Shown one piece after another: positions 15,801-18,800 of a stretch of 64,000 nt of DNA. Source of the stretch: Escherichia coli (GTDB taxonomy: Bacteria > Pseudomonadota > Gammaproteobacteria > Enterobacterales > Enterobacteriaceae); the NCBI RefSeq assembly GCF_003334355.1, contig NZ_QOWP01000001.1. One strand, 5' to 3'. The position numbers were made by a program. The stretch's first letter is position 1. Each line of letters starts with the position of its first letter.

Positions 15801-18800
15801 AGCAGAAATCATCCGCATGTTTAATACCGCGTTTGATGCGCTGGGCGCGAAAGCGGGTGATTACTACCCACCAGCCCTGCAAACGAAAATTGACGAACTT
15901 AACGGCTGGATTTATGACACCGTTAACAACGGCGTGTATAAAGCTGGTTTTGCCACCAGCCAGCAAGCCTACGACGAAGCGGTGGAGAAAGTGTTTGAAT
16001 CGCTGGCGCGACTGGAACAGATTTTAGGTCAGCATCGTTACCTGACCGGCAACCAGCTAACCGAAGCCGATATTCGCCTGTGGACCACGCTGGTCCGTTT
16101 TGATCCAGTGTATGTGACCCACTTCAAGTGTGATAAGCACCGCATCAGCGATTACCTTAATCTGTATGGCTTCCTGCGCGATATCTACCAGATGCCGGGA
16201 ATTGCCGAAACAGTCAATTTCGATCACATCCGTAATCATTACTTCCGCAGCCATAAGACCATCAACCCTACGGGGATTATTTCAATTGGTCCGTGGCAGG
16301 ATCTCGATGAACCGCATGGACGAGATGTTCGCTTCGGTTAAAAAAAGGCACCTTACGAGGTGCCTCTGATAATTAGCTAAGTGCATGTTGTTCATGTCGG
16401 ATGCGGCGTGAACGCCTTATCAAACCTACAAAACATTTATATTCAATATGTTGCAATGACCGCGCAGGCCAGATAAGCGTAGCGCATCTGGCGATTTTGC
16501 GCTTGTCATCAGTCTTAGCACGCCTTCATAGCCCTTTATTAATTCCTTGAACGAATATTTACTGCCATTTCATTCACGTCTATTCTTAATTTGCTGCTTT
16601 AAAAACAAGTGATTGAGCAAAATTGAGGCAAAAATGGACTGGTATCTGAAAGTACTAAAAAATTATGTCGGTTTCCGGGGTCGTGCGCGGCGCAAAGAGT
16701 ACTGGATGTTTATTCTGGTCAACATCATCTTTACGTTCGTGCTGGGGCTGCTGGATAAAATGTTAGGCTGGCAACGCGCTGGTGGCGAAGGCATCCTGAC
16801 GACAATCTACGGTATTCTGGTGTTTTTACCGTGGTGGGCAGTTCAGTTCCGCCGCCTGCACGACACCGACCGCTCGGCGTGGTGGGCACTGCTATTCTTA
16901 ATCCCGTTTATCGGCTGGCTTATTATCATCGTCTTTAACTGCCAGGCGGGTACGCCAGGCGAGAACCGCTTTGGACCAGATCCAAAACTGGAACCTTAAA
17001 ACAAATCTGCTCGCCGGATGTCTGACTCATCCGGCTTTTATCATCATGTTAATGAATGAATAATTTACTAATGTTTATTTAAAATATTTCAATGTCGTTA
17101 TATAAATTACCTATAAAAAATAACCATGTATTTATCTTAAATATCAAAACCTTTATAACATCCGAAAAAGAAAGATACGAATAGCATTTACACAATACCC
17201 GGAATAGACTTTCATCACTTTTAATTAAAGGGATGTTTTTATGCAGTGGTATTTGTCCGTATTAAAAAATTATGTTGGTTTCTCTGGTCGCGCACGTCGT
17301 AAAGAGTACTGGATGTTTACTCTGATTAACGCCATCGTCGGCGCTATTATCAATGTCATTCAATTGATTTTAGGTCTGGAGCTTCCATATCTGTCTATGC
17401 TTTATTTGCTGGCAACCTTCCTTCCCGTCCTTGCGCTTGCTATCCGTCGCTTACACGATACCGACCGTTCAGGTGCCTGGGCCTTGCTCTTTTTTGTTCC
17501 GTTTATTGGCTGGCTCGTGCTTCTGGTTTTTTTCTGCACAGAAGGTACTTCTGGCAGCAATCGTTACGGAAACGATCCGAAGTTTGGTTCAAATTAATCT
17601 TAGAATTGGGGCGATATTTCGCCCCTTTTTATTAACAATAATAAATATTATTTTCCGTTAAAAAGTTTGGGAATTTCCCGCAGACACCAGGATTTCGCTT
17701 CCCCCATACTGTCACGACGCCAGGCCATAATAATATCGATCTCGCTGGTCGATTCCGGGCTGACGACACGCAACCGCCCTTCCGCAATATCTTTTTCGAC
17801 CATAGGATACGGCATCGTCGCCACGCCAAGCCCCGCCAGTAATGCCTGACGTTTATCTTCAATCGTGCTCACCGTTAAGCGCGGCTGTTTGTCCAGCAGC
17901 TGTACGGTCAACACCGGGCGCTCACGAGCGGTATCCGCCACCGCAATTCCACGATATTTCACACGCGTCACTTCAGATAACGGTTCCGGCTCCTGATGAA
18001 TCGGGTGATCAGGCGCGGCAACGTAGACGTTCATTAACGTATAGAGCTTGCGCGAGTTGATCTCCGACGAGGAACGAAAATGCATATCCGGCGCGATAAC
18101 AATATCCGCCCGCCCCTGCTCCAGCCGTTCCCACGCCCCCGCCAGCACTTCTGTGATGATTGCCAGTTGGGTATTGGCTTTTGCCGCCAGTTTGTCGATT
18201 AACGGGAAAAAGGCAGGTGTCGGTACCAGCGCTTCGGTCACAATGGTGAGATGCGTTTCCCAACCGCGCGCGAGAGCTTCCGCATCAGTAGTCAGTTTAT
18301 CTGCGGCTTCCAGCAAAACGCGCCCTCGCTCCAGCAACATCCTCCCGACATTGGTGAATTTGGTACGATGGCCCGAGCGGTCAAACAGCACCACATCCAG
18401 CTCTTCTTCCAGTTTTTGCATGGTGTAGCTAAGTGCGGAAGGCACGCGTCCCAGCTCATCCGCCGCCGCCGCAAAACTGCCCCGGCGATCGATCGCATCC
18501 ATAACCCGTAGTGCTTCCAGCGTTAATGCCCTTTCTTTGGCCATTTCGTTCTCATTCAGGAAATTTGAACATACCGGGCAGAATATCTGGCTAACAATGT
18601 AGCGTCCAGCCCCTTACCATAAAAGGAAGTAAAGAGAGGTCAAGAATTATGATTACTACCCGAACTGCCAGGCAGTGTGGACAAGCAGACTACGGATGGT
18701 TGCAGGCCCGGTATACTTTTTCCTTTGGACACTACTTCGACCCGAAATTGTTAGGCTATGCCTCCCTGCGTGTGCTTAACCAGGAAGTGCTGGCCCCAGG

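Follow-up and report, generated by a model that had tools for sequence, protein, structure and literature searches.

Two small adjacent genes of Escherichia coli, yhaH and yhaI, both encode membrane proteins of the DUF805 family, and their arrangement raises the question whether they are a duplicated and redundant pair or two genes with separate histories and separate control. Here we analyze this pair in a 64,000-nucleotide stretch of an E. coli genome (assembly GCF_003334355.1, contig NZ_QOWP01000001.1), referred to as the window, to which coordinates refer unless another locus is named. We consider it very probable that yhaH and yhaI are separately transcribed genes for inner-membrane proteins and form an old tandem pair, in which yhaH belongs to the core genome and yhaI is accessory. 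The pair is already annotated, and hence already known.

The window is part of the E. coli chromosome, with the gene order yqjG-yhaH-yhaI-(yhaJ)-yhaK. A 1.6-kb query around the pair matched 5424 of 5426 complete E. coli genomes, several of them at 100% identity. The RefSeq order in an identical strain is yqjF, yqjG, yhaH, yhaI, yhaJ (on the opposite strand), yhaK, yhaL, cyuA and cyuP, and exactly two genes are called here, yhaH and yhaI, each as a ‘DUF805 domain-containing protein’. They are the K-12 genes b3103 and b3104, with the same order and neighbors and a layout identical to that of MG1655; over the spacer and yhaI the window and an MG1655-derived strain share 99.5% identity, the window strain being very close to K-12 and not identical to it. 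The Pfam DUF805 profile (PF05656) matches residues 11-115 of YhaH (model positions 1-111 of 111, E 5.1e-35) and residues 11-110 of YhaI (positions 1-110 of 111, E 6.5e-32). The gene names, the family and the tandem arrangement given in an initial annotation of the window, made from the sequence alone, were correct as judged by RefSeq, Pfam and the open reading frames. BLASTP alignment of the two proteins gave 66 identical residues out of 118 (56%, E 7e-48), and both motifs quoted in that annotation, YVGF[RS]GRARRKEYWMF and RRLHDTDRS, occur in YhaH and YhaI. Nucleotide identity over the whole genes is ∼59%. The first 96 nucleotides (16634-16729 and 17241-17336) are 79% identical because the N-terminal motif is strongly conserved.

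The age of the pair was addressed in one genome per species by tblastn mapping of DUF805 genes between yqjG and yhaJ. A single yhaH-type gene occupies this site in ∼30 enterobacterial species, including E. albertii, Salmonella arizonae, the Citrobacter freundii group, Enterobacter, Kluyvera and Cedecea. Several other species carry, at the same site and after yhaH, a second gene that resembles yhaI (119 amino acids, 60-68% identity to E. coli YhaI). Citrobacter rodentium and C. amalonaticus have such a tandem pair, with a spacer of 223-224 bp and a GC content of 0.30. The spacers of different genera share no conserved sequence beyond their AT-richness and a -10-like hexamer ∼30 bp upstream of the start, a TAnAnT-type hexamer being aligned at the same place in the spacers of Citrobacter, Superficieibacter and Intestinirhabdus. 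In a neighbor-joining tree the enterobacterial YhaH proteins formed a clade in 194 of 200 bootstraps and the YhaI-like proteins a clade with longer branches in 131 of 200, and a sister relation between the two was unsupported (31 of 200). Judged by these comparisons, the tandem pair is old and patchily spread, with a fixed site between yqjG and the convergent yhaJ, and is not a recent local duplicate. The duplication proposed initially thus stands in that the genes are related (56%) and in tandem; it does not stand as a recent or local event, the same pair being present in C. rodentium and C. amalonaticus. With as few as 118 residues to compare, ancient duplication and transfer are both possible as the ultimate origin of the pair. 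Other arrangements of the site were also seen. In Superficieibacter the yqjG-yhaJ interval holds three or four consecutive DUF805 genes (locus L010, 2529-4549; locus L024, 2530-4187), namely a distant copy (32-37% identity), yhaH and a yhaI-like gene, with a further distant copy in L010 only. Intestinirhabdus alba shows the reverse of the usual state, a yhaI-like gene standing alone between yqjG and yhaJ without yhaH (locus L089, 4001-4360).

The two genes have behaved very differently within E. coli. The YhaH protein (WP_000384145.1) was identical in every yhaI-carrying genome inspected, and comparison with the form found in a sequence type 131 (ST131) genome over 120 codons gave a nonsynonymous divergence (dN) of 0, with a synonymous divergence (dS) of 0.05-0.075 among the strains compared. 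yhaH is the conserved core copy, and it is single-copy at the site in most Enterobacteriaceae. In contrast, yhaI is an accessory, highly variable and faster-evolving gene. Most of the spacer together with yhaI was present in 4358 of the 5426 complete genomes, and ∼1037 (∼19%) gave only a short cross-match to yhaH. The ST131 genome, the GTDB representative of E. coli and E. albertii have yhaH only. In the first of these yhaH ends in LEQE rather than LEP and is followed directly by a different hairpin and then by yhaJ; the other two share the LEQE end and carry an insert resembling a repetitive extragenic palindromic (REP) element inside that hairpin. Since homology between the two forms ends at about codon 120 of yhaH and restarts at the yhaJ stop codon (17648), the whole intergenic segment (16993-17647) is the variable unit. 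The segment that replaces it spans 3355-3405 in the ST131 locus (L006) and 3355-3580 in the loci of the GTDB representative (L007) and E. albertii (L008).

Where yhaI is present, it falls into two allele classes, allele 1, which is that of the window (2082 complete genomes), and an allele at ∼88-90% identity. Fifty-three of the 56 allelic differences lie within gene positions 136-308, in a block that encodes the second and third hydrophobic segments. Codons 38-105 show a dS of 1.03 and a dN of 0.17 (dN/dS ∼0.17), codons 1-37 a dS of 0.04, and between the allele classes yhaH, the spacer and yhaJ differ by only 1-5%. As far as the sequences go, these values point to a segment that is old or was imported and that evolves under purifying selection, and not to positive selection. 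No donor for the block was found, and outside E. coli and Shigella nothing had an identity between 68% and 84%. Gene conversion from yhaH was considered as its source and rejected, the block being only ∼50% identical to yhaH in either allele. Two frameshifted forms of YhaI, arising at a run of seven T (Table 1), occur in a large protein collection, the 139-residue form on 345 contigs and the 131-residue form on 190. Phase variation at this run was likewise rejected: T6 occurs in 4 and T8 in 11 of the 2082 complete allele-1 genomes, and the frameshifted forms probably reflect sequencing errors in the homopolymer or mutations that are rare. The functional divergence that the initial annotation had suggested for the two genes finds support in their opposite evolutionary behavior, YhaH having a dN of 0 and yhaI being optional with two alleles.

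The upstream region of yhaI has also been hit by the insertion sequence IS1. In strain BKQ37E, IS1 stands after the third yhaI codon with a 9-bp duplication, ATGCAGTGG (17241-17249 in the window), which rebuilds the start and reading frame of yhaI but separates the frame from its upstream region. In 132 complete genomes an IS1 end is found no more than a few hundred bp 5′ of yhaI; the distance takes several different values, which implies that the region has been hit repeatedly. One strain has an IS1-linked deletion that reaches from the spacer to tdcD. In the compared loci, these IS1 observations fall at 1751-2518 of L005 and 3071-3768 of L002.

Separate histories are matched by signs of separate control. 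A stable hairpin follows yhaH (stem 17013-17035, then TTTTATCATC; -15.0 kcal/mol, z -3.79, none of 200 shuffles as good), and some read-through is possible at its interrupted T-run. A second hairpin (17608-17625, then TTTTTATTAA) folds at -16.3 kcal/mol on the + strand (z -4.46, again 0 of 200 shuffles as good) and at -14.3 kcal/mol on the - strand (z -4.15). Since yhaI and yhaJ converge on this hairpin, which can form on either strand, yhaJ probably uses it too, and it would not be yhaI's alone. The initial view that each gene has its own terminator is thus right as to a hairpin with a T-run 3′ of both genes, and probably wrong as to exclusive ownership of the second. The AT-rich spacer reported before yhaI was recovered as 241 bp with 27% GC, with 100-nt windows as low as 0.15. 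A scan of the spacer region for consensus sigma-70 promoters found none, an Rfam search of the spacer gave no match, and a search for small open reading frames there returned only short chance-like frames, none of them credible.

Published expression data treat the two genes unequally. In Salmonella, the yhaH mRNA is a direct target of the small RNA SdsR, which represses it by base pairing, and YhaH-3xFLAG increases toward stationary phase (PMC5137417). Overproduction of CpxR in K-12 raised yhaI 3.2-fold on arrays and 40.3-fold by quantitative reverse transcription PCR (qRT-PCR), and yhaH only 1.9-fold; the authors caution that such effects may be indirect (PMC2731931). In enterohemorrhagic E. 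coli, yhaI was the strongest Ler-dependent gene outside the locus of enterocyte effacement (LEE) island, at 36-fold (PMC3891560). Taken with the hairpin after yhaH, these CpxR, Ler and SdsR data support separate control of the two genes. They agree with the independent regulation suggested initially, SdsR acting on yhaH, and CpxR and Ler mainly on yhaI (PMC5137417, PMC2731931, PMC3891560). Whole-molecule duplex folding of SdsR with E. coli yhaH was no better than with shuffled sequences, and the same was true of yhaI and of control genes; SdsR regulation of yhaH in E. coli would follow by analogy with the Salmonella study (PMC5137417).

The spacer recalls a familiar kind of gene. One class of AT-rich accessory genes is silenced by H-NS, and this silencing is relieved by anti-silencers of the Ler type. 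Like such genes, yhaI has an AT-rich upstream region (GC 0.15-0.27), a patchy distribution, a low GC content at third codon positions (GC3) and 36-fold dependence on Ler; unlike H-NS-silenced island genes, it sits in a conserved core neighborhood. Its GC3 is 0.46, compared with 0.56-0.62 in the adjoining genes. Composition and the Ler result together suggest that the yhaI spacer may be subject to H-NS-type silencing.

Several other explanations of the locus were weighed. That yhaI arose by recent tandem duplication of yhaH inside E. coli and is now diverging is already contradicted, and we give it almost no credence. As a duplicate would be, yhaI is a same-strand neighbor of yhaH from the same family, and the first 96 nucleotides of the two are 79% identical, but identity is only 56% for the proteins and ∼59% for the nucleotide sequences, and DUF805 proteins of Paenibacillus and Neobacillus are at least as close to YhaI as E. 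coli YhaH is. Moreover, this site is occupied in Citrobacter, Superficieibacter and Intestinirhabdus by yhaI-like genes of 60-68% identity. In the tree the YhaI-like proteins fall outside the enterobacterial YhaH clade, in a clade of their own, and it does not show the Citrobacter and Superficieibacter yhaI-like genes as separate duplicates of the yhaH genes beside them. A far stronger contender, which we regard as quite possible if a little short of probable, is that the Escherichia ancestor lacked yhaI and that most non-B2 lineages of E. coli gained it when a pair-bearing donor supplied a homologous replacement for the whole yhaH-yhaJ intergenic segment, with a second import creating the allele-2 block; the E. 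coli pair would then be acquired and not an ancestral state that was kept. The lack of yhaI in E. albertii, the GTDB representative and the ST131 genome, with a common LEQE end and hairpin, speaks for such an event, as do the conserved coding sequence that flanks the variable segment exactly on both sides, the low GC3 of yhaI with its AT-rich flank, and the 173-bp block itself, whose dS of ∼1 against 0.04 in the rest of the gene is a signature of imported DNA. However, no donor was found, the range from 68% to 84% identity being empty beyond E. coli and Shigella, and deletion in several lineages fits the same pattern, IS1-mediated deletions being known to occur here. The change may thus have run in either direction.

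It is unlikely that yhaH and yhaI form one operon in which the spacer is a mere untranslated gap. Both lie on one strand, the first hairpin is followed by an imperfect T-run, and a putative transcription unit has been reported (PMC2731931), but that unit also includes yhaJ, which is on the opposite strand. A stable hairpin and a 241-bp gap separate the genes, their CpxR responses are unequal (1.9-fold for yhaH, 3.2-fold on arrays and 40-fold by qRT-PCR for yhaI), only yhaI is in the Ler set, and in most species yhaH stands alone with its own terminator. Decay of yhaI toward a pseudogene with no current function seems less plausible still. Absence from ∼19% of complete genomes, IS1 beside or inside the start of the gene, and frameshift variants at the run of seven T would fit decay; against it, the frame is intact in both alleles, dN/dS in the divergent block is ∼0.17, all family-invariant residues are kept, the T6 and T8 frameshifts are rare among the 2082 complete allele-1 genomes (4 and 11, respectively), and the gene is strongly inducible.

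Table 1. Features of the yhaH-yhaI locus in the window (a dot in the strand column marks features given without a strand).
Feature	Position	Strand	Description
yhaH coding sequence	16634..16999	+	ATG start, 121 amino acids, DUF805; RefSeq WP_000384145.1; GAGG five bases 5′ of ATG
Present/absent segment	16993..17647	.	Last yhaH codons, hairpin, spacer, yhaI and hairpin; compared with ST131 (L006), GTDB representative (L007) and E. albertii (L008)
AT-rich spacer	17000..17240	.	241 bp, GC 0.274; presumed yhaI promoter/regulatory region; IS1 target zone
yhaH hairpin with broken T-run	17013..17045	+	GCCGGATG...CATCCGGC; pattern scan; likely intrinsic terminator of yhaH
CpxR-box-like sequence	17064..17078	-	GTAAA N5 GTAAA with one mismatch; weak candidate; ∼165 bp 5′ of yhaI ATG
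-10-like hexamer	17205..17210	+	TAGACT, read from the sequence; ∼30 bp 5′ of yhaI ATG; no good -35; putative
yhaI coding sequence	17241..17597	+	ATG start, 118 amino acids, DUF805; RefSeq WP_001198807.1; AGGGA seven bases 5′ of ATG
yhaI allele-separating block	17376..17548	+	173 bp; gene positions 136-308; second and third hydrophobic segments
Run of seven T in yhaI	17527-17533	.	T6 gives a 139-residue and T8 a 131-residue frameshifted product
GC-rich hairpin	17608..17625	.	Between convergent yhaI and yhaJ; pattern scan; likely two-way terminator

Upstream of the pair, the interval from yqjG to yhaH contains REP-like palindromes (GATGCGGCGTGAACGCCTTATC...) at 16385-16500, with a weak, sub-threshold Rfam match to the REP-derived naRNA4. 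Among strains, this is the most variable part of the yqjG-yhaH intergenic region.

We return to the proteins of the preferred reading, two separately controlled inner-membrane DUF805 proteins. A membrane-localized green fluorescent protein (GFP) fusion supports an inner-membrane location (PMC3225971). The AlphaFold model of YhaH (predicted local distance difference test score, pLDDT, 90.7) has a short N-terminal helix, long helices at residues 20-44 and 54-77, and a third hydrophobic segment at 82-89/93-103, which is broken at the invariant residues P91 and G94. Across 52 diverse DUF805 members the residues R17, R20, E22, W24, F26, P66, R73, R74, H76, D77, P91, G94, N111, G114 and P117 (YhaH numbering) are invariant, and all 15 are kept in YhaH, YhaI and both yhaI alleles. 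Lysine and arginine residues number 7 in the N-terminal part and 3 in loop 2, which share one face, with only 1 in loop 1; because of this distribution, the N-terminal motif (GRxxRxEYW, before helix 1) and the RRLHD loop (after helix 2) most likely face the cytoplasm. Both proteins contain three hydrophobic segments, two of them long membrane helices and the third kinked. A simple three-helix topology would place the C-terminus outside. Two observations disagree with it. A YidC-dependence screen that included YhaH took only proteins whose C-terminus was predicted or shown to be inside, and in the many DUF805 members with two to five units per chain (proteins P0179-P0195 and others), all 15 inter-unit linkers examined (24-74 amino acids) lacked a hydrophobic stretch. 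The simplest reconciliation would be that the third segment forms a re-entrant hairpin, leaving both ends and the conserved motifs in the cytoplasm. Since such multi-unit fusions exist, side-by-side packing of DUF805 units into homo- or hetero-oligomers is possible.

A phenotype comes from phage work. With a frameshift or stop mutation in yhaH, E. coli TK001 resists two phages of the Stephanstirmvirinae, PhiWec188 and PhiWec190, and it becomes sensitive again when yhaH is supplied on a plasmid (bioRxiv 10.1101/2024.11.29.626071; PMC12695924). The initial description of an uncharacterized family accordingly holds for molecular function, but loss of yhaH does have a known consequence, complemented phage resistance (bioRxiv 10.1101/2024.11.29.626071). 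The family is very large, with 28,974 representatives at 50% identity. Both proteins share its profile, its invariant residues and its predicted fold; membership explains little, the family having no assigned function. Certain inner-membrane proteins serve as host factors after phage adsorption, among them ManYZ for lambda, PtsG for HK97 and NfrB for N4. YhaH resembles these in being located in the inner membrane, in that its loss blocks particular phages and in that complementation reverses the block; unlike them, the yhaH mutant came from a screen for poor adsorption, and the likeness covers YhaH and not YhaI.

Searches for function were otherwise uninformative. Neither protein matched a PADLOC defense-system model at E ≤ 0.01, a PDB sequence search returned no relative, NCBIfam gave sub-threshold matches only for YhaH and none for YhaI, fold neighbors in the AlphaFold database were all DUF805 proteins and none was informative, and the literature on DUF805 (PF05656) held nothing on molecular function. 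PHROG 12855, a family of phage ‘moron’ membrane proteins, is matched by both YhaH and YhaI. The Shiga toxin (Stx) phage Shigella phage 75/02 carries an intact, unannotated DUF805 open reading frame of 129 amino acids (NC_029120.1 ∼16334-16723; locus L095, 2471-2860), and one is also present in phage POCJ13. The motifs of this frame read GRASRREFWW ... RRLHD ... GDNKYG. It is encoded on the strand opposite to its neighbors, adjoins the anti-repressor gene in the two Stx phages, and looks like a moron.

Besides the placement of the C-terminus, a number of points weigh against parts of our reading. The pair has been given as a putative operon (PMC2731931), and the T-run of the hairpin 3′ of yhaH is broken. 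CpxR-like boxes number 9 in the window with 4.4 expected by chance, so that the box at 17064-17078 is not significant, and it is not conserved in Citrobacter; direct CpxR binding, H-NS binding and the yhaI promoter are putative only. The ‘receptor mutants’ of the phage study were selected for poor adsorption (bioRxiv 10.1101/2024.11.29.626071; PMC12695924), which is odd for loss of an inner-membrane protein, and the effect of yhaH on phage may be indirect. Hetero-oligomerization of YhaH and YhaI is something that we purely infer.

With these reservations, the pair might work as follows. YhaH, the conserved core copy, would rise toward stationary phase and be repressed by SdsR, as in Salmonella, and would be needed by the two Stephanstirmvirinae phages, as in TK001. 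With its own AT-rich upstream region, yhaI would probably be silent in ordinary growth, through H-NS-type silencing, and be induced either when the envelope is stressed, through CpxR, or by Ler acting as anti-silencer. DUF805 units may pack side by side into small inner-membrane oligomers whose charged face would serve as a docking site. In that case YhaI would not be redundant with YhaH but would act as its stress-induced alternative, as a different subunit or an isoform. A bolder extension, which we consider a long shot, is that YhaH and YhaI are interchangeable subunits of one small inner-membrane assembly on which certain phages depend, and that the polymorphism of yhaI in presence/absence and in its two alleles, its expression only under stress and the DUF805 genes of Stx prophages reflect phage pressure through variant or decoy subunits, which would modify the assembly and so shift susceptibility.

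In itself, the finding re-describes two annotated y-genes and adds little. The additions are modest: the age and patchiness of the pair, the accessory nature and two alleles of yhaI, the IS1 zone, the topology argument, and the link to the published phage phenotype of yhaH. For a family as large as DUF805, which lacks a known function, E. coli nevertheless offers a natural experiment, a conserved and phage-linked copy beside an optional, stress-induced copy whose two alleles are deeply diverged. If the two proteins were indeed interchangeable, phage-linked subunits, this would be the first mechanistic role for the DUF805 family.

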